64,000 nt of DNA. It comes from a virus. Made by a program: the position numbers and the translations under genes. The notes below the pieces were generated by a model that made no database searches, was not told the DNA's origin, and saw nothing but the letters and a program-made list of their open reading frames with translations. Position 1 is the stretch's first letter. The number at the start of each line of letters is the position of its first letter. The DNA is taken from positions 32,001-96,000 of the IMG/VR virus record IMGVR_UViG_3300048914_000231; one strand, 5' to 3'. Positions 6,657 through 60,937 of this stretch are shown here, piece by piece.

Positions 6657-8087
6657 TTACTGGTCGCTGCTACGGATCACGTTCAGGGAGCCGCCATTGC
6701 TACCGACGGCGAAGGTGGCTTCGAACGGCTGGATCACGGCGTTGTTGTTGCGTACCACCACGCGCGCGGTGAACGGGGCGTTATACAGGAACGTCACCGA
6801 CTCCGACGTGCCTGTGGCCGTCTTGAACAGGAACGGTACGAACGCGACCGCGTTGGCGGAAAGGGCGGTGCCGGTCTGGGCGCCGAGCGTGAACACCTTG
6901 CCGGCCCAGGACATGTAGGCGAACGACCTGGTGCCGACCACAATGGTGCCCGCGGCCGGCGTGTCCGGCGAGACGGTCTCGTTGACGGTGATGGTCGTGG
7001 CGGTCGATCCGTGGGCGCCATTCAGGGTGTACTCGTCCTGCTTGATGCCGCTGCCGGTATCGCGCCCGACCACGATGGCGTCGCCCGCCGTCAGGTTCGA
7101 AATCGTGATGCCAACGATGTTCGGCGGCACCTGGCTGGTGCCGTCGGCGGCCGTCAGCTGGTAGTTTTGCGATTCGGCCGGCAGCACGCCGGCGATCTTC
7201 CAGCCACGCGCGAGAATCCATTTGCCGGCCGAGAACGTGCCCATCGGCGCCGCGTCGTTCGGCGTGTAGCCGCCCAGCGCGCGAAAGCGCCAGCCCTCGA
7301 TGCCATTGATCGAGACGGTCGACGTCTCCGAGCAGATCGCCTGGCAGTACTGGTAGGCTTCCTGCAGCGTGCAGCCGTTTTGCAGCGTGATGGTGGCGTC
7401 GTAGTTCTTGCTGCCATTGCCATTGCCAAGGTCGAGCGTGGTGGCGCCGACCGTGATCACGACCTTGGGCGTGCCGCCGGTGCCCAGCGCGAGCGCGTTG
7501 GCCAGGGTCAGGGTGGCCGCGTTGTCGACCGACACCGACAGTGCCGCCGAGTTCTCGCCGCCGGCGGAGAGGTCGACGTCGAAGGTCGAGAAGGTGTTGC
7601 CCCACTGGCGCGAGAACACGGTTGCGGTGCCGCCGCCGATGAACGCGCCCGCGTCCTTGGCCTTGACCATGATCTGGATATGACCATTGGCCCAGTACTT
7701 GGTCAGCTTGGCGTTGTTCTGCACGACGTAGATCGACGAGCCGGCGACGATCGTGCCGATCGACTTGATGCCGGCGTACATCGTGTTGCCGCCGCTTTGC
7801 TTGATCGAACCCTTGTTGATGAACTGCGCCACCGAATCATCGATGTTGAAGCCATTGATCAGGTTCAGGCGCGATGCCACAAGCGTGTCGCGCGGGCCGT
7901 CCAGCTTGGACGGGTTGGAGGACAGGATCGACAGCTGGTCGTCGCCAGACTGGGCAAGATTGTCGGCCAGGTCCTGCAGCCAGGTGTGCAGGTCGAGGAC
8001 CGGATAGACGTTGGTGGTAGCCGGCGACGCAGCCCGGCGGATATTGCCAGATGCATCGATCTGGAAGTCTGCTGCATTGATGGTCAT
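6657..8087 (-). CDS. Putative virion fibre/structural protein
   Basis: 476 aa, G/T/A/S-rich beta-type sequence. Confidence 0.6.
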   Translation of the reverse strand: MTINAADFQIDASGNIRRAASPATTNVYPVLDLHTWLQDLADNLAQSGDDQLSILSSNPSKLDGPRDTLVASRLNLINGFNIDDSVAQFINKGSIKQSGGNTMYAGIKSIGTIVAGSSIYVVQNNAKLTKYWANGHIQIMVKAKDAGAFIGGGTATVFSRQWGNTFSTFDVDLSAGGENSAALSVSVDNAATLTLANALALGTGGTPKVVITVGATTLDLGNGNGSKNYDATITLQNGCTLQEAYQYCQAICSETSTVSINGIEGWRFRALGGYTPNDAAPMGTFSAGKWILARGWKIAGVLPAESQNYQLTAADGTSQVPPNIVGITISNLTAGDAIVVGRDTGSGIKQDEYTLNGAHGSTATTITVNETVSPDTPAAGTIVVGTRSFAYMSWAGKVFTLGAQTGTALSANAVAFVPFLFKTATGTSESVTFLYNAPFTARVVVRNNNAVIQPFEATFAVGSNGGSLNVIRSSDQ

Positions 8088-13010: not shown

Positions 13011-13529
13011 TCACGCCGCCAGGATCGCCGACCTGTTCGTGACCAGAATCCACTGGCGGTGCGCCTCCCAGCTGTCCTCCCTGATCAGGCCGGCCTTGAG
13101 CAGGTTGGCGCGGTACAGCGCGGACATCACGAGACCCTCCTGGATCACCTGCGGGAAATCCGGATGTGAAGCCAGCGCCGCGGCATTCCACGCGTCGCGC
13201 GCCTGTTCCTCGCTGCAGTCCGGATTGGCCTTGACAAAATCGACCGCGGCGGCCTTGGCAGCGAAACGTTCGGTTTCCACCAGCTGCGTCACGGTCGACT
13301 TCGGTCCGAAGTCGGCGGTGATCCCGGCGCCGGAACCGGACTCCAGCGACGTGATCATGGCCTGCACTTCCGTCAGGGCGATCTGGGCGTCGCTGTTGAC
13401 GCTGTTGAGCTTTTGCACGGCCGACGCGGTGGCGTCGATCTGGCCCTGCAGATTGGATTTTTTGAGACGCGCCGCCTGCAGGCGCGCTTCGTTGGCGAGA
13501 GCTTCTTGAATTTCGGTGGTCGTGGCCAT
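13011..13529 (-). CDS. Hypothetical protein
   Basis: 172 aa, N-terminal coiled coil, AAGGA RBS. Confidence 0.6.
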   Translation of the reverse strand: MATTTEIQEALANEARLQAARLKKSNLQGQIDATASAVQKLNSVNSDAQIALTEVQAMITSLESGSGAGITADFGPKSTVTQLVETERFAAKAAAVDFVKANPDCSEEQARDAWNAAALASHPDFPQVIQEGLVMSALYRANLLKAGLIREDSWEAHRQWILVTNRSAILAA

Positions 13530-13544
13530 TGCGATTCCTTTCGG

Positions 13545-16500
13545 TTAGGGGAGCATCTTGAAGTTGTGGCAGAGCAGGCCGCCGGCAAAATAGGTGCCGG
13601 CGCCTTCAACGCGGAACGATACCACCTGACCTTGTCCGACGGCAAGGACGCTGGTCACGATCGATTCCTGCATGCCGAGAATGTGGTCGCCCGCGCGCAG
13701 GTTCTGCACGTGGACCCAGCCGCGGTCCTCGACGGCGAAGCGGTGGTTTTCGCTCCATTCGGTTGCGCGACCGTCCGCCAGCGTGACGCGGTAGCGCTGC
13801 GCCCAGATCGTGCAGCAGTCACGGATGATGCCGCCCCTGGCGATCGGCTCAAGCGTCGTGTCATTGACCGCCTGTACGACAGCGCCGTCGTGCAGGTCGC
13901 TGGCGTTGACCTCCCTGCCGCTGGCCAGGCGTACCTTGACCCACGGCGCCGGGCAGGCGCCACCACCGCCTGCGGACGTGCCGCCCGAGCCGCCGCCGGA
14001 TGAGCCCGACGTGCCGGTGATCGTCGTCGTCGACAGGTTGGCATTGACACTGGCGTTGCCGGCGAAGTCCTTGGTTGCTGACCAGCCGTACGAGTTGGCC
14101 AGGCGCACGCGCATGCAGCCGGTGAACAGGCCGTTGCTTTCCAGCTGGGTGCTGATGGTGCTGAGCGAGCCCGATCCGCTGAAGCGCCAGCCCCACGACC
14201 ACGAGCCCTGCACGATGCCACTGTCGCCGTCGTAGGTGCGCGACGGACACGGCCAGTAGAACTCGGTGAACGGGAACGTCGACGAGGTCGACTGAAACAG
14301 CTGGACGTGAATTTGCTGCATCGCGTCGAGGTTGTCGGTATAGGTGCTGTACGAGGTCGGCACCAGCTTGAAGCTGTGGTAAATCTGCTGGAAGTTGGAG
14401 TTGATCACCTGCGACGAGATAAACGAAATCGTCAGGCGGTTGATGTCCGGCGCACCGCCGCGCGTGGTGGCGTCATTGTTGCCGCGCCAGATCACCCGGC
14501 CATTGGCCTGGTTGCCGTCGATTGCCTGCACCAGGCGGAACCAGTAGTCGGAAAACGTCACGCTGCCGACCTGGAACGAGTTGTTGGCCACCTTCAGCGC
14601 CGTACCGGTCGAGGCCAGCTTGGCGCCCGCGGTCGGGTTGCCGGAACCGTCCTCGGCGTAGTTGGTGGTGCGCAGATCGGAAATCATCGCCGACTGGATT
14701 GCCGCGGACCGGATATAGGTGGAGGCATTGGCCGTGGTGATCACCGAGTCGCACCATGGCGTGACCTTGTTGCCCAGCTCCACCTTGATATTGGCAATCA
14801 CGATGTTGCCGCCGCCGGCGGCCGTCGTGAACATGCGCAGGCGGCACAGCGGCGCATTGGCGTTGGCCAGCGCCGTCTCCGTGAAGGAGTAGCGGGTCAT
14901 TGTTGTGGTAAGCGCAACCGAAATGCCGGTGCTGTCGTAATCGATGCTGTTGACGACGTCCACGTTCAGAATACGGCCGGCGGTGGTGCAGTAGGCGTCA
15001 AAACTAACGGTGTATTGAGATCCCCAGGGAATCCCCAGCGCCTGCGATTCGGCGCCGCTATAGCTCGAATCCGCGGTGGTGGCGATCCACACATACTGCC
15101 CGTCACCGAATCGCACGTCGCCGTTGCGGTTGCCGGTGGCAGTGTTGTACATCGTCATGCCGGTCGGGGCCGGGCACAGGTTCGGGTTGGTCGAAGTCTG
15201 CTGGGCCAGGCTGCTGCCGGAGGCCAGCAGCACAGTGCCATCGTCGGCCAGAATCGTGGCCGAACGCATGCTGATGGCACCAGAGGTGCCATCAATGGTG
15301 ATGGTATTCACGCCGCTGCTGTTGTAGGCGACGACGCCGTTCTTGTTCATCATCATGCCGTAGCCGCCAGTGCGTACGCCAGTCGAACTGTTGTACGTCA
15401 ACGTGCCCGCCGTGAAGCCAGCGCCGCCAGTCAGCACGTTGACCGTATTGTTGCGCATGCGCTGGGCCAGGCCGGTGGTGGGGTCATTGACGGCGCTATA
15501 CGCCTGCACACCATTCCAGTTGCTCGACAGGGGGCCAAAGCGGATGCTCTTCATCACGGCGCCAACACTGAAGAACGAACTGTCGAAGAACAGCACCTGG
15601 TTCGCCGTGGTGGAAGCGGCATCCAGGGATGTATAAAATACAACCCCGTTTTTCAGATACTTGACACTGGAGCCATCATAAACCACGGCGAAGACGTCAT
15701 TTGCCGCCCAGGTTCCACGACTGCCGCCAATCTGAGTCCCAGATTCAATGACCTTAATGGAGATTGGGTTCGTAGTGGCATCAAGGCAGAGAGACCAGTC
15801 GATCCCAGTAAAATCGACGCCCGTCAGGTCACCGGAACTATTAAGGCCGAAGGATATCGTGCTCGTGATGTCGGCTGCAACAATGGAAGCGTACGCGCCT
15901 CCCGTAAAACTGTCCCGGCTGTACACCTGTCCGTCCCAACCCGACCCGGTGCCCGTACCTTTGGTGGCGGTATTGCCGCTGACGGTAACCGAACCGGTCG
16001 CCACCAGGGCAATGTCTGCGGTCGCATTGTCGACGGGCTTGCCGGTGCCGGTGATTGCCGACCACACGTTGACGTTTGCAACCGGGATGCCGTTGATCGT
16101 GCCGGTAATGTTGCCAGTGAATGCCACACTTGTACTTGGCTGGTAGGGGTTCTCGGCCGCGAGGGACGGAACCGCGATTGTTGACATGATGACGCCCGCC
16201 GCATTGACGTCCTTGTCGACCGAGCGGTACGCGCGCACGCCGAACTTTGTGAACAGGGTGGCGCCGACGCCATACATGATGAACGCACGTTTCGCCGCAG
16301 GCAGGGTGAACACGGTTTCGGCTGCCGGCGTGGTGCCGAAGGTGTATGCGGCATTCGTAGATGCCTGATACACGTAGACCAGGAAGCCGTCGATGTCTCC
16401 CTCATTGCCCGACCATGCCCATTCGAACGAAATGTCGGCCGAGCCATCGGTGCGGATCGTGTGATCGACCGCCGTGCCATCGGCCAGGATGGTTGGCGCG

Positions 16501-19635: not shown

Positions 19636-22600
19636 TTCTTAACGCCCATCATGAAGATTTCGTTGTAGCCAAGGATGACGTCGGGGTGCGCCGACCACTC
19701 CACCTCGACCTTGGTCGTGCCGGCCGGCAGCTTGACTGACGCCGAGCACACCGGAGCATCGTTGGCGACGCGGCCCATGATTCCGCGCACCACGGTGCCG
19801 GCAACCTTGATGCGGATCGACCAGTAGCGGCTGTTGTTGGCAAAGCCCTGCGCGCTGGTGACCAGGATGTAGACCATGCCGTCCTGCGGCATTGCCATGT
19901 AGCCCTCGTTGACGACGGTCCAGGTGCCTTCACCCACGCCCTTGCGCTGGCGGTCCGGCGCGGTGACAACGATCGGCACCGTGACGGCTTCGCCAGCCAG
20001 CTTCAGCGTGTTGATCTGGGCATCGCCAATCATGGCCGACGAGATCGAGGCGTCGCCGATCAGGGCGTTGGACAGAATCACGCGCGGCACGCCGTTCACG
20101 GTGCCGACAGTGAATGGCTGCACACCCGGGTAGCTCGGCATGATCAGGCCGAACTTGTCGGCGTAGATCACGAACTCGGACGTGCCCACGCCGGCCAGGC
20201 TGGAGGTCGAAGACAGGCCAAAGCCGGCGATGTAGCCGTTGTTGTCGATCTTGAGGCTGTACTGGCCGGACAGGCCGCTGATCGTATTGGCGTTGGTCGA
20301 GAACGCCTGCTCCATCGTCACGCCGCCAACGTTGTTCAGACGGCTGGTGATCTGGTAAATCGCCTGGGCCGCGGCGGACGTCGACGTGGCTGACACGTTG
20401 TTGAGCTGCGTGATCGCCGCGGTGGCGGCCGGCAGGCCGGTGGTGGCGTCGTTGACCTGTGCCTTGAGCTGGTACAGCGTCCTGGCGTTGGTCGAGGCCG
20501 ACGTGGCCGACACGTCTTCCAGCGCGGTGATCTTGGCCGTCGCCGCCGGCAGGCCGGTGACCGGGTCGTTGAGAACGTCGCTGACGGCCTTCACGCGCGC
20601 GTTGACGCTGCCGGCCACGGTGTCCGCGGCGTCGATCAGGTCGATCCTGGTCTTGAGCGCCGGCAGCAGCTTGGAGTCCGCGATGACGCCATCGGCGATT
20701 GCCGCCACGTTCAGGTTGGTGGTGGTGAACGTCTGCATCGACGACACGTTCAGTTCCGTGCGGCCGAAGGCGTCGTAGGCCGCCAGTTTGTAGTAGTAGA
20801 CGGCGTTGAACATCAGGCCGGGCACCGCGAACGACGTGTCCGGGCCGCTGTAGACCAGATAGGTGTCGCTGGGCGTGCCATTCAGGTTCGAAGCGTTCTG
20901 CGACATCCACATGCACACGCCGGCGAAATCCGGATCGTCCGTATGCTGGTAGCTGACGCTGACCGAATCGAACGACGGCAGCGCGCTGAAGCTGGTCAGG
21001 CCCGGCGACGGGTTGAAGGCGTCGAGCAGGGCCGGCGTGCCGAGATTGTTGAACGTGTCGCGCTGGCGAACCTGAAACACCAGATGGCGGGTCAGGCCGT
21101 CCGAGAAGTTCTTGTCGTAGATGTAGACGTAGCTGTTGTCCGTCGTGTACTCGGTGCGGCGCAGTGTCGTGCCGTCGGCTTCGAACACCTTGATTTCGTA
21201 ATCCTTGAAATGCGGATCGAGCGCACCGGCATCAGCGCCGTTCGGTTCGCTGCCGAACTCGTAGGAGTGCGTGACCGAGTTGTAGCGCCAGTTGATCTTG
21301 CAGTCACGGCCGGACCAGACATAGTCCACGCCGGTAGGCATGCCGACATCAATACCCTGCGTCTCGCCAATCACGGTATAGGTCGCGGTTGGCGCGTCCT
21401 CGTACTGGCTGCGCTTGTCGAACAGGTCGAACGCCACCACGCGCACGCCCAGGACGTCACCGCGCGCGGCGCTGATGACGACGCTGGTGACGCTCTTTAC
21501 GGTATTGATCTTTTCTTCCGTGCGTCCGTTTCTGGTGACGTACACGTCGGCGCCGCCGTACATGCCCACGGTCGACGCCGTCCAGCTGGCCACCACGCTG
21601 GTGACGACATTGTCACCGGCAATGTAGGTCTCTTCGTAGACGGCCAGGTTGGCAACCGGTCCAATCGGAGTGTTCGGGTTGGTCGGTACGGCCACGTTGC
21701 TGCCGTAGCGGCTGTAGTCATACACTTCGGGGCGGTATTCGATGGCGGTAATGTCGCGCCGGTATTCGGAGTCGCCCGTGATCGACTTGATGCGAAACGC
21801 CTTCTTGACGCGCGCGGCCTCGCCGAACATCCATTTCGTGAACTGGGCCGGTGCGGCGCTCATGGGCGTTTGCAGCGTGACGGTATCGCTGGTGCCAGGC
21901 GTGACCACGACCGGGAATTCCTCGATCACGTCGGTATCCCACAGCACATAGGTCTGGCCCGGAACGACCCCGGCGACGCTTGACAGAATGACGCCATTGC
22001 TGAAGGTGCCGTCGACGCCGATATCCTTGCCGCCCACGACAATGCGCCTGACAGTCAGGCCGGGCGTGAAGCCGGTCAGCGTCACGCTGTTGCCGGTTAC
22101 GCTGACCACGCTGCCGCTGGCGCGCTGCACGCTGTCACGCATCGCCAGCAGATTGTAGGTCTTGCCCGAGGCCATGGTCACGGGGCGGTCAAGCTGCATG
22201 ACCGACGTGGTGGAGCCCGCGTTGAAGCGCCCGGCCTGCGCCCAGTTGGTCAGGTCGGTCTGTACATAGATCAGGTCGCCCACGCGGCAGGCGATCGCCT
22301 CCAGCGGTGCCCCGAACGTGATGGTCTTGAGGATGTAGCGGTTCAGGTTCAGCTGGAACTGCGCTTCCTTGTAGGCGCGGTCATAATCGACCACGCCATA
22401 CAGCGTGACGGCGCTGTTGCGCTGCGGTGCGCCTGAAGTGAATGCCACCGGATCATAGACCTTGATGGTGCGCTGCTTGTACCTGTCGGTCCTGTCGAAA
22501 AAGGTGACGTCGATCTCGTTGGCGCGGTCGGCGGTGCCCAGCCAGGTTTCCTTGTACGAGCCCTGGATCATGTTCGCGACCGAGAACATCATCACCGGCG

Positions 22601-25721: not shown

Positions 25722-28700
25722 TTAACCTTTCAATGCGTCCTTCATGCCCGAGCGAAACGGACCCGGGGTGGTTACGGCCGACAGCACCACGTCCAGAACC
25801 ATCTGCTTGCCATCAAAGCGGGCGTTGCCCTGCTGGGCGTTGACCGGCGTGGACGTCTGGTTGATCACGTTGACCTGAACGTTGGCGCCGGCGGCCTGTG
25901 TGCTACCCTTCATCGTCACCGGAATCGAACGTCCGTCCGGCAGCGGGACGTAGGCTTCCGTGCCGGCTTCACCGTAGATCGCGACCTGCGGGCTGTTGGC
26001 CACGCCGCCGTTGGCGTACTTGCGCAACTGCAGCGGCCCCATACTCGTCATGATGCCGCCGTTGGCAAACATGAACTCGGCGACCGAGCCTGCCCCAACG
26101 CTGTTTTCCGCTGCCGTGGCACCGGCGGCCATGTCACCGCCGCCAAACAGGGAGCCCAAAAATCCACCGCCACTCACGCCAGACCCGCTTGTCATCAGCC
26201 GTTCGGCGAACATCTGCAGTGCCGGAATGGCCTGGCTGTAGATCGTGGTGCCCATCTGCATGGAGGCGCTGGCCGTGGTCTCGTCGGCGGTCACACGCTG
26301 GGCCGCCGCGGCCGTGGCCGCAACATCGCTGGCGCCCGTTTTGGCCATGCCGAACACGTTGGTCTTGAGCCAGTCGCCGCCGGCATCGGACAATTGTCTG
26401 AGCGGCTCGGCCAGCGCCTGTTTCAGTTTGGCCGAAGCGATCTCCATCAGCATTTTCTTGATGAAGTCCTTGACCGCCAGATGACCGGTATTGAGCGAGT
26501 CCACGATCATGCTGACAAAGCTGTCGGCCGCGTTGGCGCCAATCTGGTCGACCGCTCTGCCGACGTCCTGCCATTCGCGCGCCATTCTGGCGGTCGCGGA
26601 CTCCATCTGGCGCGCTTCCTGTTCCGCGCGCAGCCGGCGGCGCTCGTTATAGATGCGGTCGGTGTTGTCGCGGTCGCGCTGGTAATCCTCGTCGATGGCC
26701 AGCAGCATTTCGGTGCGCTGCTCCTCGGTCTCGATGCCGGATTCCTTGCCCAGTGTGGCGCCCGCGATCAGGCTGCGCTCCCTGGCGTACGTATCGTCCA
26801 GCGTCTTTTTGCGCATGTTCAGCTGCGCATCCTCGGCCGCGCGCTCGGCTTCCAGACGCAGGCGAATGCGCTCGCGCTCGGTATCGGCCAGTTCGGCCTT
26901 CGACTGGCGGTTCTTGTCCAGGTAGCCCAGCGCGAACGTATTGTTGTCGGCGCGCGCCTGGTTGAACAGGGCCATCCCCTTGGCGATATTCCACTTTTCG
27001 AACGCACTGGTGCCGGCGCCAAGACGCTGTTCGGCACGCTGCAGCTCCTTGTTCAATGCCTTGAATGCGTCGGTCTGCTTGGCGAGACCGCCATTTTCCA
27101 GCGTATTCATCGCTGAATTGGCTTCGTAGAGGGACGCAGCGACACGCTCGTTGGCAAACGTCACGGCCTTGATCTGCTCGTTGTAGAGCATGGCCTGATA
27201 GGTCTCATCCTTCAGCTGCCTGATTTTCGGATCGTCCGCGGCCGGATTCTTCGTCTTGTCGTGGTTGACCGAATAGTCGCCCGCCTTGCGCTTGCCCTCG
27301 ACCAGATCGATCGCCTCCTGGCGCAGGGTCTCCAGCGTCTCGCCGCCGGCCACCAGCGCATCCAGCTTGGTCTTGGCGGCGTTCATCTTGCCCTGTTCCT
27401 CATACAGGGCTTCGTTCAGCGGATCGCGGTCGCCGCGGCGCTTGCCGCTGGTGGCCGCGGCATTGTCGATGCGCGCGGTCAGTTTGTCGTTCGGCTTGTC
27501 CTTGGGTTCGGCGACTTTTTGCTCGACGCGCTTGTCCGGGGTCAGCCTGACCGGCTGGCGCTTCTTGCTCTCTTCCGTGATCAGGGTTGCATCGTAGCGA
27601 TGCTCGTTGATTGCCGAACGCCTGTCGATGTCGGCTTTCTTGCCGGCGTACTCCTCGTCGCTGTCCAGGTGTACCAGATGGCGTGCCCAGGCCATCAGAC
27701 CTTCGCCGCCCAGCGTCAGGCGACGCCAGTTCGCGATGATGTGGGTGATGGCGTTATCGATGCGCTCGCCGATCGTCAGCGTCATCGTACCGAACAGGTC
27801 GAACGAATCGAGCCAGTTGCCGATCACCGTGCCGATGTCAAACGCCAGCACGACGAGGCCAAACACCTTGAACACCTTGGTCAGCGCGGCAAAGGCGCTA
27901 CCGATGAGGCCGACACTACCGGCCGCGGCCGGGCCGACGCCAATCAGCGAGCGCAGCACACCCATCAGGCCGGTGGCACCGAACATCGACATGAAGCCCT
28001 TGACCGACAGCACGACACCGGCGAAGCCGGCACCGATCACGGACAGGGTCGCGGCCACCTGGTTGTTCTGGCCAAACTCGCGAAACATCATCACGACACG
28101 GCTGCCGAACTCCAGCAGCTTGGTCAGGGCCGGCAGGATCGTATCGCCGACGATGACCTTGAAATTGGTCAGCTGGGCGTTGAACTTCTGCATGTTGGCC
28201 GCGTAGCTGCCACCCAGGCGCTCGGCGGTCTTGTTGACGCCGTCGGCGCTGTTGATGGTTTGCGACTGGTGTTCAAGGCGCTCGCGCGCGGCTGGCGTGC
28301 CCACGGCGGTGACGGCGGTGACGGCCGACTGCGTGATGCCCAGGCGCTGCAGATACTGCTGGACCGCCAGCATCTGGTCCTGAACATTGTTCGGATCCAT
28401 GCCGTTCTTGTAGAAGCGCGCGCGGTTCTTCTGCGTGTAGGCGACGATCTGCGGCACCATGTCCTGAATCGCACGCACCGGGTCGCGCAGCCACAGATCG
28501 ACGTTCTTGAAGCTGCCGTTCTTGGCGTCCTTGAGCACGCCGGCGTCATCCTTCGACAGGTCCAGGCCGCTCTCGTCGAGAATGCCGGCGCCGATCGTTT
28601 CCTGAACCGCCTTGTTCGACTTGGTCTTGCCGGTGGCATAGGCCTGCATCATCTTGATGATGGTGCCGACGGTCGACACGCCGCCGCCCGAGCCGCCATC

Positions 28701-41777: not shown

Positions 41778-42668
41778 TTAAGCGGGGTTGAGCGGCTCGG
41801 TTACAGCCTGGTTGTCGAACGCCAGTACGTTGATGCGCTCGGGCAGGCTGCGGCCAAAGTCCGGGTTGGTATAAATGCCATACAGCGGGCTGGCCAGCAC
41901 CAGCTGCTGCAGGCTCTTGAGCAGGTAACCGACTTCCATCGCGTCGACCCGGGACGTGCCGTTGGCGCGGTTGTCGCCCGATTTCTCCATCGACGAGCAG
42001 CGATAGTAGAACTTGCGCATTTCGTCGACGCATTTGGCGCGCACCGCCGGCGGGAATGCGTCGAGCTCGGCCCTGATGCCCACATAGTCCATCGGCACCG
42101 AGCGGAACCAGCGCCCGAAGAACGCCAGACCCTTTTCGTAATGGCTGCTGCGCTTGGGTTTTGTGAAGCGCATGCCGGCTTTTGCCGCGAACGGGTTGAA
42201 TTTGCTCATCGACGACTGGAATTCGACGAAGCGGCAGCCGGTCATGCGCATCATGAGGTTCTGCATGCGGTAGGCGATGCCGGCGCCGCGGAACATCGTG
42301 TCCAGCACCAGACGCGAGTTCGTGCAGCTGTGCTCGTTCAACCACATCGCGCGGGTTCGGTTGATCAGCTTCGTGTCGCGTCCATTCTGGTTCGGGCGCA
42401 TGTGGGGCATCGCTTCGTTACGGCCCGACAGCAGCATCTTGGGCACGGTCATGACGCCCACGCCGATCACCTGACCATCGAGCACGCAGCGGTAGATTTT
42501 CGGCCCGATGCCGAGGTTTTCCGCCTTGTAGTGCAGCTCGTGCAGCAAGTTCCAGTCTTCCTTGGTACCGCGCTCGACGTAGACGCGGTCCAGCAGCGAC
42601 AGGCGGTGGTTGGCCGGCACCGGCCGGCGCTCGACCAGCAGGTTGTCGTTGTCGATCAGGACGGTCAT
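41778..42668 (-). CDS. GNAT/Mom-like acetyltransferase-fold protein
   Basis: LHELHY, SRLVLDTMFRGAGIA (acetyl-CoA motif A), MSKFNPFAAKAGM. Confidence 0.7.
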   Translation of the reverse strand: MTVLIDNDNLLVERRPVPANHRLSLLDRVYVERGTKEDWNLLHELHYKAENLGIGPKIYRCVLDGQVIGVGVMTVPKMLLSGRNEAMPHMRPNQNGRDTKLINRTRAMWLNEHSCTNSRLVLDTMFRGAGIAYRMQNLMMRMTGCRFVEFQSSMSKFNPFAAKAGMRFTKPKRSSHYEKGLAFFGRWFRSVPMDYVGIRAELDAFPPAVRAKCVDEMRKFYYRCSSMEKSGDNRANGTSRVDAMEVGYLLKSLQQLVLASPLYGIYTNPDFGRSLPERINVLAFDNQAVTEPLNPA

Positions 42669-42785
42669 TTCTTCACCCCGCCGCCGAAGATGATCAGAAT
42701 GATGGCGAGCCAGCTCATGTCGGCCACTTCCAGATGAGAATGACGCCCACGGCAATCATGCCGAGACCAAAACAGTCAAACGTGC

Positions 42786-43097
42786 TCATGCCGGCACTCC
42801 CGCCGCGGCCAGGAATGAACGCAGCCTGGCGTCGGTCTGGCCGCCCGAGACCGATGCCTGGGCAGCGCCATCCCTGAACACGGTCAGGGTCGGTACGCCG
42901 CGCACGCCGTGCACGCTGGCGAGAGTGCGGTGTTCGCCGGCGTCGACGCCGATCAGCCTGAAACCCAGTTCCGCGGCGAGCGCCTCAACCAGCGGCTTCA
43001 TGCCCTTGCAGGGGCCGCACCAGCTGGCGTGGAACATGACGACGGTGGTGCCGGCGCCGACGTCTGCGGCGAAGTTTTCGGGGGTGGTGTTGTGCAT
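42786..43097 (-). CDS. Thioredoxin
   Basis: WCGPC and VRGVPT motifs; start re-called. Confidence 0.9.
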   Translation of the reverse strand: MHNTTPENFAADVGAGTTVVMFHASWCGPCKGMKPLVEALAAELGFRLIGVDAGEHRTLASVHGVRGVPTLTVFRDGAAQASVSGGQTDARLRSFLAAAGVPA

Positions 43098-43099
43098 GT

Positions 43100-43792
43100 T
43101 CAGTCCTTGATGGGGTCGGTCGGGTGCGGCGGCTCCCTGAAGCCGTCGGCGCTGGCGCCGGGGCGCAGAATGCGCACCTTTTCCCGGTAGCGTTTTTCGA
43201 TATAGAGGCTGGGCGCCAGGTCGTCGACCATGTCGCCGTGAGTGGTGGCGACAATCACGGTGGCGCCCACCTTGCGCGCGATCTTCTGCAGGTTGAAGGC
43301 GAGCACCTTCGCGGTCACGCGGTCGAGCACGGCCAGAAATTCGTCGGCGACCCATACCTGCGCGCCGGATTCGATGATCTTGGCCAGGCGGAAGCGGTAG
43401 CGTTGGCCGTCCGACAGTTCGGCGGGTTTCCGGATGAACAGGTAGGCGTCGTTCAGGCCGGCGATCGACAGGAAGTTCAGTGCCTCGGTCGTGTTCTTGC
43501 CGATCTGGTCGATCAGCGGGCAGTCCAGCAGCGGCACCTCGTCGATGGTAACAACATTCAGGCCGCCCTCGACCATGCGTTCTGCCAGTTCGCGCAGCAC
43601 GGTCGACTTGCCGGCGCCGGACTGGCCCGTGACGTACACAATGTCGCCCTGTTCGATGTCGATCGGCTGGTTGTCAAAGACGACGAATTCCTTGTCATCC
43701 AGGCCCAGGCCGAAGGCTTCGGCGATCTCCAGCACGCGGTCGGTGCGCTCGACGGTTGTATGAAACCGCTTGTCGATTTTGTATGTTGTCAT
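43100..43792 (-). CDS. Stand-alone ABC-type ATPase
   Basis: GQSGAGKS, LSDGQRYR, ADEF, ATTH; no permease nearby. Confidence 0.85.
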   Translation of the reverse strand: MTTYKIDKRFHTTVERTDRVLEIAEAFGLGLDDKEFVVFDNQPIDIEQGDIVYVTGQSGAGKSTVLRELAERMVEGGLNVVTIDEVPLLDCPLIDQIGKNTTEALNFLSIAGLNDAYLFIRKPAELSDGQRYRFRLAKIIESGAQVWVADEFLAVLDRVTAKVLAFNLQKIARKVGATVIVATTHGDMVDDLAPSLYIEKRYREKVRILRPGASADGFREPPHPTDPIKD

Positions 43793-44906: not shown

Positions 44907-45194
44907 TCACAGGGCCTCCGGCTGGGCCAGCGCGCGCACGAGCGCCATCACGCCCTCCTGAAAGTGCGTGCGGCCGATGGAGGCCCAGCGCTCCGGTTCG
45001 GCGGCGTTCATGCGCATGGATTCGCGCACCTGATGCTCGTCCTCCATGCTGCGGCACTTGTCGCGCTGGGCGGCGATATGCTCACGCACCTCGCGCACCA
45101 GTTCCAGCAGCACCTTTTCATGCAGCTTGACCTTGTTGATCAGGTCCAGCGTATCCTGATCGAGCTGGCGATAACCTTTGATCGGGTTGCTCAT
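44907..45194 (-). CDS. acb2: Anti-CBASS cyclic-nucleotide sponge Acb2 homologue
   Basis: IKGYRQL...AEPERWASIGRTHFQEGVMALVRALAQP matches Acb2 IKGYRDL...[28 protein letters not shown] as recalled. Confidence 0.88.
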   Translation of the reverse strand: MSNPIKGYRQLDQDTLDLINKVKLHEKVLLELVREVREHIAAQRDKCRSMEDEHQVRESMRMNAAEPERWASIGRTHFQEGVMALVRALAQPEAL

Positions 45195-45203
45195 GTGGTT
45201 CTC

Positions 45204-45368
45204 CTATGCTGCTTCCGGCAGACGCCGGAAGCGGATGGGGTGTTCGGTGAGGGTGTCTTCCGCGAGTGGCTCGAACATGTCGCCGTCATCGCATTCGTCG
45301 CACATGTAGGAGAGCTCCTGGTTGGAGCAGTCCTCGCAAAATTCGTAGCCCTTGTTGCAGCGCGCCAT
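45204..45368 (-). CDS. Small Cys-rich (zinc-binding) protein
   Basis: C...CEDC...CDEC; start re-called. Confidence 0.55.
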   Translation of the reverse strand: MARCNKGYEFCEDCSNQELSYMCDECDDGDMFEPLAEDTLTEHPIRFRRLPEAA

Positions 45369-46100: not shown

Positions 46101-47828
46101 ATGGAAAAAGTAACGATCGCGCGTAACGCCGTGACAGCCATGCTGCACAAGCCCAGTCGCGATGTAAAACTGGAAGTGCAGGCGATTCTGTCGTACGCGG
46201 TCGCCGGCGCCGAGCATGCGATCGCCTTCAAAAAGGGGGTGTGGGACGGGCGCTCGTCGTTCCTGGACTTCAGGAACGGCACCTTCCCGGCCGGCTTTAC
46301 GCACTACGTCACGGCGCACCTGCGGCGCAAGGGGTACGAGGTGCAGATCGCCCAGAAGGCCCTGCCCGAGCCGCTCGGCCCGGAAAACCCGGTGGTCGAC
46401 GCCTTTCCGGAAGACCCGCGCTACGACTACCAGATGGAAACCGTGCGGCGTCTGGTCAAGCACGGCCAGATCATCGCCCAGATCGCCACCGGCGGCGGCA
46501 AGAGCCGTACCGCGCGCCTGGCGTACGCGCGCATCAACCGCATGACCCTGTTCATCACGACGCGCTCGATCCTCATGTACCAGATGAAGGACAGTTTCGA
46601 GCGCGACCTTGGCGTGCCGGTATCGGTGCTGGGCGATGGCCAGTTCGGTCACACCACGTCGGACGGGCGCCAGGCGGTGCGCAAGATGTGCGTCGGCATG
46701 GTGCAGACCCTGGCGGCCAAGCTGAAGGAAAAGACGGTCGAGGGCGAAGTCGAGGCCGTGATCGACGCGCTGGTGGCCAGGGAGCTCAAGGCGGTCAAGG
46801 CGCTGGAGAAGAAGCTGGTCGACGCCGGTGCCACGCCGGCGCAGGTCAGGGCCCGGGTCAGGCAGCTGGAAGAACAGCAGCTGGCCGCGCGCTCGGACTC
46901 GAAAAAGATCCAGGCCGATTGCGCCGTCAAGGTGCATGAGCACATGGCGATGCGCGCGCGGGTGATTGAATTGCTGGGCCGGTTCGAATTCGTGATCATC
47001 GAAGAGGCGCACGAGGCATCGGCCGAGGATTTCTACAACGTCATGCAGCACTGCAAGAGCGCGCACTACCGCATGGCGCTGACGGCGACGCCGTTCATGA
47101 AGGCCGACGAAGAGGCGAACATGCGCCTGATGGCGGTGTCCGGCCCGATCGCGATCAAGGTGTCCGAGCAGACCCTGATCGACCGCGGCATTCTGGCCCA
47201 GCCGCATTTTCGCTTCATCCCGTGGGCCGGCAAGCCGCCCAAGCTGTTCAAGCACACCGGCTGGGCGTCGGCGTACCGGCTTGGCATCACCGAGCACGAA
47301 TGGCGCAACCAGACCGCGACCGCCGTGTGCCGGCGCTTTGCCGAGTATGGTCTGACGTCGATGGTGCTGGTACAGCACACCGCGCACGGTGAGACCGTCA
47401 GGCGCCTGATGCTGGCCGCCGGCCTGCGCGTGGATTTCATCCAGGGCGAGGATGACCAGGACGGGCGCAAGGCAGCACTGCAGCGCCTGGCGCGCGGCGA
47501 ACTCGACATCCTGATCGGCACCACGATCCTCGACGTCGGCGTGGACGTGCCGGCCGTCGGTCACATCTGCCTGCTGGGTGGTGGCAAGGCCGAGGTGCAG
47601 CTGCGTCAGCGTATCGGGCGCGGCCTGCGCGAGAAGAAGAACGGCATGCCGAACCTGTGCTTTGTGACCGACTTCGCCGACACGCTCAACGAGCACCTGC
47701 ACAACCATGCCAGACAGCGTCAGGCGATCATCAGGGACACGCCGGGATTCGACCGCTTCATCCTCTCCGACGGGCGCGACTTCGACCTGGAGGCGCTCGG
47801 CTTCAGGCGGCTGGCGGCAGCGGCGTGA
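46101..47828 (+). CDS. Superfamily 2 helicase
   Basis: YDYQ, ATGGGKS, EEAH, LTATP, VGVDVP, QRIGRGLR. Confidence 0.92.
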   Translation: MEKVTIARNAVTAMLHKPSRDVKLEVQAILSYAVAGAEHAIAFKKGVWDGRSSFLDFRNGTFPAGFTHYVTAHLRRKGYEVQIAQKALPEPLGPENPVVDAFPEDPRYDYQMETVRRLVKHGQIIAQIATGGGKSRTARLAYARINRMTLFITTRSILMYQMKDSFERDLGVPVSVLGDGQFGHTTSDGRQAVRKMCVGMVQTLAAKLKEKTVEGEVEAVIDALVARELKAVKALEKKLVDAGATPAQVRARVRQLEEQQLAARSDSKKIQADCAVKVHEHMAMRARVIELLGRFEFVIIEEAHEASAEDFYNVMQHCKSAHYRMALTATPFMKADEEANMRLMAVSGPIAIKVSEQTLIDRGILAQPHFRFIPWAGKPPKLFKHTGWASAYRLGITEHEWRNQTATAVCRRFAEYGLTSMVLVQHTAHGETVRRLMLAAGLRVDFIQGEDDQDGRKAALQRLARGELDILIGTTILDVGVDVPAVGHICLLGGGKAEVQLRQRIGRGLREKKNGMPNLCFVTDFADTLNEHLHNHARQRQAIIRDTPGFDRFILSDGRDFDLEALGFRRLAAAA

Positions 47829-48142: not shown

Positions 48143-48170
48143 CAGCGCCCCACGGGGCGCTTTTTTTATT
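48143..48170 (+). terminator. Intrinsic terminator
   Basis: AGCGCCCC-ac-GGGGCGCT followed by T tract. Confidence 0.75.
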
Positions 48171-48235: not shown

Positions 48236-48520
48236 ATGAGCAATATTGACAAGCGCAACCGCTTTTCCATCGATCTGCCACCCGACTGGCAGGATTACCT
48301 GGCGCACACCGCCCGAATTCACCGGCTGACGCAGGGCGAGGTGGTGCAAACCCTGCTGGCCAACATGCACAGCTGCGCCGGCATCGAGCAGGCTCTTGCC
48401 GCGCGGCGCGAGGAAAAGGTGGCAGCAAGGCGCAGCAAGGCGTCGATGACCGCGGCATTCAAGCAGTTGACACCCGAGCAACAGCGGCGCGCGCTGGAGG
48501 CGCTCGGAGCCGAATCGTGA
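48236..48520 (+). CDS. Ribbon-helix-helix-like DNA-binding protein
   Basis: RFSIDLP...LTQGEVV pattern; first gene of array operon. Confidence 0.5.
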   Translation: MSNIDKRNRFSIDLPPDWQDYLAHTARIHRLTQGEVVQTLLANMHSCAGIEQALAARREEKVAARRSKASMTAAFKQLTPEQQRRALEALGAES

Positions 48521-48816
48521 AAGACAGGGCACCCGGGCCGAAGCCGGTTGAGGTGTGCCGGCATGTATTCCGGCACGCGACGCTGAAGACGATCAATGCC
48601 AGGGTTGACCACATCGAATGGATCTTCTTCGAAGGTGAGAAATGGCCGCGCCAGCTGGTGTATTTCACGAATGGATCGACCACGTTTGACGCCGCCGCAC
48701 AGTGGACGCTGGCCCAGGCCAATGCGCTGGCCGAAACGGGCAACTGGACCAGGGAAATCTTCATGACCGTGGAAAACGACAGGCCGGATGCATCGTACGG
48801 TACGGAGGTATGGTGA
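48517..48816 (+). CDS. Array ORF 1 (ends TEVW)
   Basis: ATGGTGA overlap with next gene. Confidence 0.7.
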   Translation: MKDRAPGPKPVEVCRHVFRHATLKTINARVDHIEWIFFEGEKWPRQLVYFTNGSTTFDAAAQWTLAQANALAETGNWTREIFMTVENDRPDASYGTEVW

Positions 48817-49091
48817 ACCTGCTGTTTATTGAACTGCATTCTGAAAAACTCAGGGATACCGCGCCGTTTGTGACGGCGTACGACCTGGATTATCCCGGGC
48901 CGAACAAGCGTCAGTGGCGCGTCGACAGGGCGCGCGGTGTCGAGTCCGGGGTCAATCGCGATGGGAGTGGCATGCGGGGTGTATGGGCGTATCTGGCGGC
49001 CGGCACCTGGCTGCAGCTGACGCAGCAGGAAGCCTATACCAAATTTCCTGAACTGCAGACGGCGATCGAAAACTGGGTGGAGCCATGGTAA
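48810..49091 (+). CDS. Array ORF 2 (MVN...VEPW)
   Basis: Start re-called to overlap ATG. Confidence 0.7.
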   Translation: MVNLLFIELHSEKLRDTAPFVTAYDLDYPGPNKRQWRVDRARGVESGVNRDGSGMRGVWAYLAAGTWLQLTQQEAYTKFPELQTAIENWVEPW

Positions 49092-49441
49092 ATCTGAGCA
49101 ACAGCATAACGTACGAGAACTACCTGTACCTGCGCCGGCAGCTGGGTGAACAGGAAAACGGCGACTGGCCGTCGTCATCATGGAACATCATGTCGGCATC
49201 AGGCACGCAAAACGTGATCAACACCATGCTTGCCAAATGCGAAAACCTGATGCGCGAGCGTGATCTGTCATGGGAGGCGTACAAGAAAGTGTGGAGCAAG
49301 GGGTCGGTGCCTGCGTATTTAAATCCGACCGCCTGGGAGGAAGCGCCGCTGTTCATCAAGGCGGCCATCATCAAGCCGCGTGAGGTGGGTATCGTTGACG
49401 TGCGCGAGGACGTGCCGCAAAGCGAGGTGACGCCATGGTGA
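49085..49441 (+). CDS. Array ORF 3 (two tandem core domains, ends DVPQSEVTPW)
   Basis: TYENY and SWEAY repeats. Confidence 0.75.
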   Translation: MVNLSNSITYENYLYLRRQLGEQENGDWPSSSWNIMSASGTQNVINTMLAKCENLMRERDLSWEAYKKVWSKGSVPAYLNPTAWEEAPLFIKAAIIKPREVGIVDVREDVPQSEVTPW

Positions 49442-49650
49442 GATACCGGCCCGACGGACGCAAAATTGACACGAGCTACGCCAACTATCTGCGTCTGGCC
49501 GGTTTGAACCTGATCAGCGCCGACAACCAGCTGACGTCGAACGACTGGAACTGGCTTGATATGGACGGCAAGGCTGGTGAAATCGAGCGCCTGATGAACC
49601 TGGCCGAAGTGCGCGACCGGCCGGAAAGCGGCGGGGTGGTGGCATGGTAG
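49435..49650 (+). CDS. Array ORF 4
   Basis: SYANY core, ends DRPESGGVVAW. Confidence 0.75.
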   Translation: MVRYRPDGRKIDTSYANYLRLAGLNLISADNQLTSNDWNWLDMDGKAGEIERLMNLAEVRDRPESGGVVAW

Positions 49651-49847
49651 AGCGTCTGTCCTACCGTCATTACAAGTCGCTTCATTTTGCCGCCGGTTAT
49701 GGAGAAGGTGAACTGGCCGACATCGTCATGTGGATGGATACGCCCGACCAGCTGAAACTCGCCGAGATTGAAATGCTGGAAGAACGCCTGCGCGAGATTC
49801 GTGACGAGGTGTCCGATATACCAACCAGCATGGTGACGCCATGGTAA
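49644..49847 (+). CDS. Array ORF 5
   Basis: SYRHY core, ends DIPTSMVTPW. Confidence 0.75.
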   Translation: MVERLSYRHYKSLHFAAGYGEGELADIVMWMDTPDQLKLAEIEMLEERLREIRDEVSDIPTSMVTPW

Positions 49848-50044
49848 AAGATTCAGCCTACCCTTACGAACGTTATGTGGAGTATTTCAAGATCGTCTGG
49901 CCAGGCATGCACCCGATGGATGAATATGAATGGTATGTGCGGCATGGACGCACGGCGCGCGCGAGGACGATCAAGATACTCGTTCGGCAGATTCCAGATC
50001 ATCAGCGCAAAGCGCCATTCTTGAAGGAGAGGGTCACATGGTAG
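49841..50044 (+). CDS. Array ORF 6
   Basis: PYERY core, ends ERVTW. Confidence 0.75.
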   Translation: MVKDSAYPYERYVEYFKIVWPGMHPMDEYEWYVRHGRTARARTIKILVRQIPDHQRKAPFLKERVTW

Positions 50045-50244
50045 ACGTGAGCTATGACCGTTTTTACGCTTTGCGCAGGGCGCTGGATATGCCAGAAGAG
50101 GGGGAGGTGGCGCGCAGCAGGTGGGAGATTCTGCCGGAGGCGCATCGGCAAAGCGTCATCGCCATGATGACCGGCACGCTCAACGGGCGCAACACCGTCC
50201 TGTTCCCGTGCGACGCGCCTGAAAGTGAGGTGGTGCCATGGTAG
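50038..50244 (+). CDS. Array ORF 7
   Basis: Start re-called at MVDV; SYDRF core, ends DAPESEVVPW. Confidence 0.75.
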   Translation: MVDVSYDRFYALRRALDMPEEGEVARSRWEILPEAHRQSVIAMMTGTLNGRNTVLFPCDAPESEVVPW

Positions 50245-50447
50245 AGGATTGCACTTACGAGCAATACAAGGCGGCCTGCGTATCGATCAACGAAAAAGCA
50301 TGTTGGACGCGAGGAGGATGGCTGGGCTTGGTCAAAGACGCGCGGATCGCGGTCATGGCAAACCTGTTGAATGCCGGGGCCTGGTGGCCCGATAGGGAGC
50401 TTGGCGAGGGTGAGGATGTTCCAGAAACTGAGGTGACGCCATGGTAG
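50238..50447 (+). CDS. Array ORF 8
   Basis: TYEQY core, ends DVPETEVTPW. Confidence 0.75.
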   Translation: MVEDCTYEQYKAACVSINEKACWTRGGWLGLVKDARIAVMANLLNAGAWWPDRELGEGEDVPETEVTPW

Positions 50448-50635
50448 AGGAATTGTCGTACGAAGCATATCTGCGTCTTCGGCGCGCCGCCAGGCGCGAG
50501 GAAGCGCATGACGTCTCGCGCGAATCCTGGGAAGGCGGCAAGGTGGCGCGACGCTTCGTCATCAGCTGGCTCACGCGGGAGATCGGGCAGCGCGTCGATG
50601 CGCAGGAACTGCCCGAATGGGGAACATGGGGATAG
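50441..50635 (+). CDS. Array ORF 9 (last)
   Basis: SYEAY core, ends ELPEWGTWG. Confidence 0.75.
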   Translation: MVEELSYEAYLRLRRAARREEAHDVSRESWEGGKVARRFVISWLTREIGQRVDAQELPEWGTWG

Positions 50636-51003
50636 GGAAATTGGGAGCCTGACCTGGCGGTCTCTGTCGATGGGAAATTGGTATAAGGATCGCGTATCCG
50701 AGGACCGGGGCCATGTATAAGGATCGATCGTTTTCGGGCCGGCCCGGAAATATAAGGAAGGGTTATTGGAGACCGGAAGTTGAGGAAGGCTGGGCCATCA
50801 AAGGGCGAAATCCGCCCTAAGACATCGGTCTCGCGCGCACGCGTCGCGCGTCGCTTACAACCCGCACATTGACAGAATCTGCGAGACCGAACCAACAAGC
50901 AAGACCGCGACAAAGACCGCAACCGCAGCGGTACGGGTCAGCGCGGTATCGATGACGCTACGCGCATGCAGGTCTGCGCAGTAGTCAGCAGTACTGCGCG
51001 CGC

Positions 51004-54854: not shown

Positions 54855-55508
54855 CTACCAGTTGGCCCACGTGTCGTAGGCGTCGATGCGAATTTCGTGT
54901 TCCAGCCTGATTTCGCTGCGCATCTGCCCGATCATGTCGATGCGCCAGTTGATCCGGATGGCGCGGTTTTCGATACGGTCCTGGCTGCAGTTGTCGATGA
55001 CGACCTGATCCCTGAAGCCGTTGTGAAAATACAGAACCATGCAGCCGCTTTTTGCCTCGACGCTTGCGATATTTTCCCTTTGAACGATGGCCCAGTCGTG
55101 CCGGTCATCCTTCAGAAGCAGATTCATCTTTTCGGCCCGGTGTCTGGCCACGAGATTGCTTGAGCAGGTTTCGATCACGTCCCGCCGGTCGTGGTTCGTC
55201 GTTCTGATTCTGTACGTCAGGTTGAAGCCGTCGGCGCCGAATTCGGCATGGTAATCGCCGTTCGTGTCGCGCTCGATCAGCAGCCGGTTGATCCGGTCGA
55301 TGCGCTCGTGCGTCAGGATATTGTCTCTGCTGCCGTCCGTGATCGCATACAGAATATCGGACTGGTTCAGACGCTCCTGATAAATGTTGCCGGCGTCGTT
55401 GATGTAGACCCGCACCATCAGCGGATCGATTGTCACATTCGTGGCGTCGTTTTCCAGGCGCTCCTGCTGCGCGTGCGCTTCCTGTTGTTCCCGCCGATTC
55501 ATTTTCAC
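54855..55508 (-). CDS. Hypothetical early protein
   Basis: 217 aa, GGAGG RBS; ends WANW. Confidence 0.65.
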   Translation of the reverse strand: MKMNRREQQEAHAQQERLENDATNVTIDPLMVRVYINDAGNIYQERLNQSDILYAITDGSRDNILTHERIDRINRLLIERDTNGDYHAEFGADGFNLTYRIRTTNHDRRDVIETCSSNLVARHRAEKMNLLLKDDRHDWAIVQRENIASVEAKSGCMVLYFHNGFRDQVVIDNCSQDRIENRAIRINWRIDMIGQMRSEIRLEHEIRIDAYDTWANW

Positions 55509-60637: not shown

Positions 60638-60937
60638 TTACCAGCTGCCGGCCAGCGTATGGGTTGGCAGGTCGGCTTTGGCCAGTTCGTGCGCCTTGAG
60701 CCAAATCGCCTGTTCCCATTGCAGGTCGTGCCACAGTTTGTCGAAGCCACGGGTGCGTTTTTCAAGCCATTTGCCCTGTTCCAGTTGCAGGTCGCGCCAG
60801 GCCTGCTCCCACGCCTGGCGTTCCAGCTCGACGCGAACGCGCTCGCGCACGACCCTGTTGGCTTTCTCGCGCTCACGCAGCGCGGCGGCCTTCTGGATCT
60901 GATCGCGCTGCCTGACGCGTTTCTGCTTCTTGTTCAC
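60638..60937 (-). CDS. Basic coiled-coil protein
   Basis: 99 aa with internal repeat WRDLQLEQ / WHDLQWEQ. Confidence 0.5.
   Translation of the reverse strand: MNKKQKRVRQRDQIQKAAALREREKANRVVRERVRVELERQAWEQAWRDLQLEQGKWLEKRTRGFDKLWHDLQWEQAIWLKAHELAKADLPTHTLAGSW

Follow-up and report, generated by a model that had tools for sequence, protein, structure and literature searches.

The acidic, Phe-ended C-terminal tails of phage T7 gp2.5 and gp4, and the tip of bacterial SSB (D-D-D-I-P-F), are read by a pocket on a partner protein. Clamp-binding tails are found on T4 gp43, gp33 and gp55, which bind gp45, and bacterial QL[SD]LF binds the beta clamp; the C-terminal tail of the R2 protein of ribonucleotide reductase (RNR), which docks on R1, is a textbook docking peptide. 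Translationally coupled overlapping genes, with ATGA or TAATG junctions, occur in phage and bacterial operons. Here we describe a chain of ten small genes in which a C-terminal peptide and a gene overlap coincide. The chain lies in a stretch of 64,000 nucleotides (nt; hereafter the window), bases 32001-96000 of the 114,062-bp virus record IMGVR_UViG_3300048914_000231 (G000), which has direct terminal repeats. It belongs to an uncultured phage present in root metagenomes, one run of which holds the complete genome, with a gene repertoire matching Pseudomonas phage nickie and Rhizobium phage RHEph10. We find that the array itself is of a common type, namely a tandem family with coupled genes, built around a clade-wide C-terminal tag.

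Nine plus-strand open reading frames (ORFs), spanning 48517-50635, are linked by eight 7-nt overlaps of the form ATGGTRR (ATGGT followed by AA, AG or GA), located at 48810, 49085, 49435, 49644, 49841, 50038, 50238 and 50441. ORFs 1-8 have Trp as the terminal residue, ORFs 2-9 begin Met-Val, and ORF9 ends W-G. Within the 64 kb, only one further ATGGTRR site (55248) has at least 40 open codons on each side, and the minus strand has none. The start of ORF1 overlaps, as GTGA, the stop of a gene of 94 amino acids (aa), which makes the chain ten genes long. Its members, with the protein families A and B described below, are:

48236-48520, plus strand: 94-aa gene heading the chain; no Pfam match; PHROG 3203 (unknown function), E 4e-4
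48517-48816, plus strand: ORF1, 99 aa, family A, predicted disordered tail ending in W; GTG start, 4-nt overlap with the 94-aa gene
48810-49091, plus strand: ORF2, 93 aa, divergent family-A-like, tail ending P-W
49085-49441, plus strand: ORF3, 118 aa; family-B domain (residues 1-62), conserved C-terminal extension, then tail
49435-49650, plus strand: ORF4, 71 aa, family B
49644-49847, plus strand: ORF5, 67 aa, family B, modelled with AlphaFold2 (AF2)
49841-50044, plus strand: ORF6, 67 aa, weakest family-B member, tail lacking Asp
50038-50244, plus strand: ORF7, 68 aa, family B
50238-50447, plus strand: ORF8, 69 aa, family B
50441-50635, plus strand: ORF9, 64 aa, family B, last gene of the chain; canonical tail P-E-W-G-T-W-G, free of any ribosome-binding site (RBS) duty

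Homologues of the 94-aa gene, a possible ribbon-helix-helix regulator, are found directly upstream of the arrays in the relatives L008, L010 (G001), G002 and G003. As in ATGA or TAATG coupling, start and stop overlap on the same strand and the Shine-Dalgarno sequence lies inside the upstream gene. Elsewhere in G000 overlaps of 4 nt and 1 nt dominate, whereas all eight array junctions have the rare 7-nt form, which allows the upstream gene to end in Trp. We rejected programmed frameshifting across the junctions: there is no slippery site, and each ORF has its own Shine-Dalgarno sequence and ATG.

The junctions carry constraints of two kinds. Two junctions (49435 and 50441) match the consensus, GAGGTGACGCCATGGT, exactly, and two more (49841 and 50238) nearly so. 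With the eight junctions aligned on the ATG, positions -11 to -6 upstream of each start, inside the upstream gene, read GAGGTG or a close variant, and third codon positions are G at -9 in seven of the eight, at -6 in all of them and at -3 in seven. The 'E-V' of the tails thus appears to be the next gene's Shine-Dalgarno sequence in translation, a constraint at the nucleotide level. With an ATG start, a 7-nt overlap furthermore leaves only TGN (W or C) for the last sense codon and only GTR (V) for the next gene's second codon, so that the 'MV' start is a by-product. If a terminal Trp is required, the only price of setting the ATG one base earlier is an xxA codon (P, A, T or V at -1), and 'MV' results.

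Other parts of the tail behave differently. Among the array tails Pro is encoded by all four of its codons (CCG, CCA, CCT, CCC) and Asp by both of its own (GAC, GAT), and this synonymous variation indicates that D-x-P is conserved at the amino-acid level. With no gene behind it, ORF9 still has the canonical tip P-E-W-G-T-W-G, which its orthologues share, and ORF4-type orthologues all retain D-x-P-E and [AS]-W around a spacer that differs in both sequence and length. To judge from these alignments, D-x-P and the terminal W are likely selected as peptide. A previous sequence-only reading of the window had described the eight stereotyped junctions, with their W ends and MV starts, and an approximate junction consensus; all of these are confirmed at the coordinates given above. 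It had also suggested peptide selection on the tail, which stands for D-x-P and W, given the synonymous codons and ORF9, and falls for E-V and MV, which are forced by the nucleotides. The comparison by codon position, which it had suggested for separating a peptide from conservation confined to the RBS, shows that conservation extends beyond the RBS at D-x-P and W.

The aromatic end occurs well beyond the array. In G000, 15 of 156 proteins are W-terminal, against 2.1 expected (P = 5e-9), and with the array removed the count is 9 of 149, against 1.9 expected (P = 1.6e-4). For several non-array carriers the next starts lie 12, 16, 17, 77 and 80 nt downstream, and terminal W is therefore not dictated by the overlap. 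Carriers unrelated to the array include:

54855-55502, minus strand: 215-aa protein ending W-A-N-W; next start 12 nt downstream, no overlap
60638-60937, minus strand: 99-aa protein ending D-L-P-T-H-T-L-A-G-S-W; next start 80 nt downstream

In total, about 20 proteins that are unrelated by BLAST carry the tag. Four orthologous families, followed across four genomes (G000-G004 compared), keep the tip while the preceding residues drift, and one of them is a WGR-domain protein (PF05406, 1.5e-8). G001, a complete 110.8-kb relative, has 16 W-terminal proteins among 165. Cultured nickie has nine aromatic-G-x-aromatic ends, against 0.12 expected, mostly F-G-G-W followed by A or S; W is next-to-last there because the junction in that phage is xCATGA. 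The seven such ends of RHEph10 (0.15 expected) are all [FY]-G-[RM]-F, for example F-G-R-F. Upstream of the tip, a Pro with an acidic or Asn neighbour usually stands 4-12 residues before the end, and a Pro between -14 and -4 is present in 13 of 17 tagged proteins of G000, compared with 63 of all 156 proteins. The carriers are all non-structural, with none in the structural module (36-72 kb of G000). Judging by these end sequences, about one protein in ten of this phage clade bears an aromatic C-terminal tag, which is not private to the array.

Within the array, [DE]-x-P is present in seven of the nine tails (ORFs 1, 3, 4, 5, 7, 8 and 9); ORF6 has K-A-P, and the only nearby Pro of ORF2 is at -1. 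An aromatic-Gly-x before the terminal aromatic residue is found only in ORF9 (W-G-T-W). ORFs 1-8 end in E-V-x-[PA]-W or similar, where the RBS lies, and their tails look like a degenerate variant of the clade tag. What had been taken for a constant tail peculiar to the array would thus be a local variant of a clade-wide tag, found on unrelated proteins and often without an overlap.

ORFs 3-9 are one family (B) of mini-proteins of about 65 aa with three helices, ancient paralogues with a variable body. The core was tested with the initial MV and the last 12 residues stripped, with each protein and its own orthologues excluded from the hidden Markov model (HMM) and with 1000 shuffles. The N-terminal half of ORF3 scored 36.2 bits, ORF4 21.4, ORF8 14.4, ORF5 13.4 and ORF6 7.0, and none of the 1000 shuffles reached the score in any of these cases; a smaller HMM test gave 25.6 bits for ORF7 and 24.0 for ORF9. 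ORFs 1 and 2 were not recognised as family-B members. The shared core of ORFs 3-9 proposed in the sequence-only reading hence survives the removal of tails and relatives, whereas the two core copies it saw in ORF3 do not: the C-terminal half is not detectable as a second copy (1.3 bits, reached by 23 of 1000 shuffles, and by 480 of 1000 in the smaller test). The AF2 model of ORF5 has three helices (7-16, 27-32 and 35-57; predicted local distance difference test, pLDDT, 80.5) and a low-confidence tail (58-67). When 1.8 billion representatives were searched exhaustively with a profile, family B was limited to 26 clusters, all of small metagenomic proteins; among 30 compiled members, 25 start xV and 26 end in W. 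Each family-B paralogue in the window is closer to an orthologue in other phages (37-75% identity) than to any paralogue in the window, so the expansion took place long ago.

ORFs 1 and 2 form a second, beta-rich family (A), with a fold unlike that of ORFs 3-9. It has a conserved G-x-W-x-E-[VI] motif, and ten such proteins were found in 5.8 billion. The ORF1 model is beta-beta-beta-beta-alpha-beta (pLDDT 76) with a disordered tail, so that the tails are predicted disordered or of low confidence in both AF2 models. No array protein had a match below E 0.01 in Pfam, PHROGs, NCBIfam or the PDB sequence profile, Foldseek searches of PDB and BFVD with the ORF5 and ORF1 models gave no match above background, and the ESM Atlas yielded no lead. 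A wide VIA-align search with the same two models returned generic matches only (best Z 5.3 and 5.7); the three-helix C-terminal domain of Red-beta, considered as a fold match, was dropped at Z 4.0-4.4, which is not above background. Cultured phages had no tblastn match to ORF8 or to the WGR-family protein, and scans of viral and metagenome contigs with A2, P0009, P0012 and P0021 gave none either. A predicted complex of ORF7, ORF9 and ORF8 scored 0.12 against a mark of 0.32, which speaks neither for nor against an interaction.

Gene content of the array differs among relatives. A 21-kb fragment (L008/L009), whose helicase is 81% identical, has the same layout as the window and keeps the order of ORF3-like followed by ORF4-like genes, with an extra family-A gene placed precisely between the ORF2-like and ORF3-like genes and bounded by junctions at 7744 and 8001. 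In the more distant G001 (helicase 66% identical), the same locus has family-A genes only, five in number, each of them ending in W, and their overlaps are a mixture of 7, 4 and 1 nt. In G003, larger ORFs in a row end G-[STA]-W, and the junctions there are of mixed types. Relatives, in which the sequence-only reading had proposed to compare copy number and order, differ in gene content; order is kept where it is visible. Fused forms also exist: P0012 (388 aa, on two contigs) has four family-B repeats in one chain with an ORF2-like domain, and P0018 and P0022 have two fused family-B repeats each. All of them have a single tag, at the very end, which fits a label needed once per polypeptide. Within the ORF2-like gene of L008 (7381-7750), a direct duplication of about 100 nt breaks the frame; the database protein P0037 is the intact form, and the duplication is either an assembly artefact or a real variant.

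The tag resembles the T7 and SSB tails in being a short disordered C-terminal peptide, on several proteins, with acidic residues, often Pro, and an aromatic residue with a free carboxylate. It differs from them in its tip, where Trp (or Phe) follows Gly or a small residue, and in being carried by about 10% of the proteome, mostly tiny orphan proteins. The carriers are three-helix or beta-rich mini-proteins with no OB-fold, and PF00436 was not found in the genome. The phage's own SSB is of the T4 gp32 type (PF08804, E 1.6e-22; G000 13160-14062, minus strand, = L019:13163-14062), and its acidic-hydrophobic tail, E-L-D-D-L-L-x-x-L, conserved in all relatives, is distinct from the aromatic tag.

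With clamp-binding tails the tag shares the feature that hydrophobic or aromatic C-terminal pentapeptides on unrelated proteins converge, in the case of the clamp, on one ring, and the end of E. coli Pol II, Q-L-G-L-F, is loosely like polar-aromatic-G-x-aromatic. Unlike QL[SD]LF, the array tails contain no Gln, and their position 4 is polar or Pro. We saw no gene for a phage clamp, and the tag is missing from the polymerase, ligase and exonuclease of these phages. Their R2 proteins have an aromatic tip too, preceded by a conserved Tyr, but this tail has its own known partner, R1. We set aside R1 as a general reader, as nothing suggests that other tagged proteins use it. In RHEph10 (L046), the RNR small subunit (42412-43374) and the adjacent glutaredoxin (45074-45322) both end D-D-[ED]-F, which suggests that the two may dock on the RNR large subunit via the same groove. 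Capsid targeting was likewise discarded as a role for the tag: the tagged proteins are all non-structural and from the early region. The known capsid-targeting signal of T4 is N-terminal.

We consider it fairly probable that the locus is a coupled ten-gene operon of tiny domains, each with the local form of the clade-wide tag. The tag would consist, roughly, of Pro-acidic and, after 0-6 residues, (aromatic-Gly-x-)aromatic, with the final aromatic residue last or next-to-last in the protein. Three constraints may be superimposed on the same 18 nt. The tag would require a terminal TGG; the next ATG, placed one base before this TGG, would set an xxA codon before W and a Val after Met; and the next gene's Shine-Dalgarno sequence, GAGGTG, would occupy the tag spacer and read E-V. 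Copied by tandem duplication, the junction would then have been frozen by the triple constraint, and we attribute its stereotyped form to tag, translational coupling and inheritance by duplication together. Coupling, which we infer from the overlaps, would give comparable amounts of the ten products. Most likely the tag docks each polypeptide in a pocket of a single shared reader protein, by analogy with SSB and T7, whose style of docking is the most economical reading of the tail; this docking, like any cellular role, is what we infer rather than observe.

Several points weigh against this explanation. No reader was found by presence/absence comparison, which failed, RHEph10 carrying the tag in its Phe form, or by Pfam, which detected no peptide-binding domain in the conserved unknown proteins, and docking rests on analogy. 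Of the proposal that the tails dock on one hub, the docking-type reading is kept, being the most economical and in line with the disordered tails; the hub itself was not found. The internal array tails lack the aromatic-Gly part and could be weak or non-functional versions. Within the array, cause and effect of W and overlap are inseparable, and the argument is carried by the non-array carriers and ORF9. Finally, the genes were called with a home-made, simple codon-usage caller, and the percentages are approximate; family members in relatives share ancestry, so that counts across genomes are not independent.

Could the overlaps alone have produced these tails? On that account W, MV and EVTPW would be by-products of a duplicated ATGGTRR and Shine-Dalgarno sequence, and the tail would have no role as a peptide. 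The overlap does force TGN and GTR, third codon positions are fixed in the GAGGTG stretch, and the junction is inherited across family B, most of whose members (25/30) start xV. Yet W or F tips are present on unrelated proteins with the next start 12-80 nt downstream and in phages with other junctions (nickie with xCATGA and W next-to-last, RHEph10 with F-G-R-F), ORF9 has the canonical tip with no gene behind it, Pro and Asp codons vary synonymously, and W enrichment persists outside the array (P = 1.6e-4). The non-overlapping carriers largely refute this account already, and we regard it as extremely unlikely. A tip with a peptide role might instead be a C-terminal degron for the timed removal of early or accessory proteins by a host or phage protease of the Lon or ClpXP type. 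Bacteria have well-established C-terminal degrons (ssrA), the tag is confined to small non-structural proteins, with none in the 36-72 kb module, the tails are disordered in the AF2 models, and fused forms keep one tag per polypeptide. However, the tip is unlike known ClpX or Lon C-degrons, and conserved replication-module proteins such as the WGR protein are tagged in every lineage checked, which suits recruitment at least equally; a degron is in our view unlikely.

The composition of the array bears on two further explanations. ORF2 and the family-B proteins might be the pieces of a split multi-domain protein, a single hetero-oligomer made in equal amounts through coupling, with the tails secondary. 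This would agree with P0012, which fuses an ORF2-like domain to four family-B repeats, with the two-repeat proteins P0018 and P0022, and with gene order, which is kept where visible (ORF3-like then ORF4-like in L008). Fusion indicates joint function, though, not contact, and the family-A-only array at the same locus of G001 implies that no fixed set of subunits is required. We find the split protein distinctly unlikely as the explanation, and it is compatible with a coupled operon of tagged domains rather than exclusive of it. The sequence-only reading had proposed a cassette library, perhaps of anti-defence or host-takeover adaptors, shuffled by recombination at the junction. The array does lie in an accessory region, its content differs among relatives, and the extra family-A gene of L008 is bounded exactly by junctions (7744 and 8001). 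Against such a library, the paralogues are old, with closer orthologues in other phages than in the window, and show no sign of rapid shuffling. Contigs from four root-metagenome runs have no joints or variants over the array, among them identical array pieces in three other root metagenomes; as these are contigs, the evidence is weak and the absence of joints proves nothing. No array protein matches any named family, and no defence-related evidence of any kind was found, nor anything that links the array to host takeover. This library, too, we hold to be very unlikely.

Within the favoured explanation, a coupled operon of domains bearing the clade tag, a more specific role can be imagined. 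The array might be a set of adaptors whose bodies bind different targets and whose Trp tips deliver them to one reader, shared with the other tagged proteins; we think this rather doubtful, if conceivable. It would amount to a phage-private protein-addressing system with a dedicated adaptor operon, a suggestion we offer only tentatively and one not described in the literature searched. Neither the tag nor the array turned up in the literature searches.

The surroundings of the chain are those of a non-structural, accessory region of G000. Directly upstream of the chain is the gene for a 575-aa helicase (46101-47828), which resembles the helicases of RHEph10, nickie and Klebsiella phage-plasmid-like phages. 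Helicase-related phage records share a replication set of DnaB, primase, ligase, CobS/CobT, DnaE, DnaQ, RecA, SbcCD, RNR and ParB-like proteins. One further feature lies upstream of the operon:

48144-48161, plus strand: terminator-like GC hairpin followed by a T run

An Rfam search gave no match, and no RNA dataset is listed among the sequencing runs that contain the phage. After ORF9, the intergenic stretch 50640-50810 of the window contains short repeats, three TATAAGGA units and two GGGAAATTGG units, and a 49-nt block that is 86% identical to a stretch after the otherwise unrelated G001 array (L010 15860-15960). The stretch could be an iteron-like site, an origin or a partition site. A small gene that by eye resembles DUF2493/SLOG (YspA-like) lies 3' of the array in G001 (L010 15432-15803), and a similar candidate, also by eye, lies 5' of the W-tailed run in G003 (26841-27251); there is none after ORF9 in the window. 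A GIY-YIG/NUMOD3 homing endonuclease gene is located between the CobS and DnaE genes (G000 20611-21297, minus strand, = L020:614-1297) and is absent from the compared relatives.

The array is a clean example of a peptide signal, an RBS and a start codon superimposed on 18 nt, which freeze the junction while the genes drift. It also advises caution in reading 'conserved tails' beside overlapping genes, since part of such a tail may be peptide and part RBS. If the tip is a docking label, these DnaE-polymerase phages of about 110 kb tie a tenth of their proteins to one partner, in what would be a private addressing code. The cultured members nickie and RHEph10 make the tag directly testable, and the identity of the reader would give a first functional handle on dozens of orphan genes at once.

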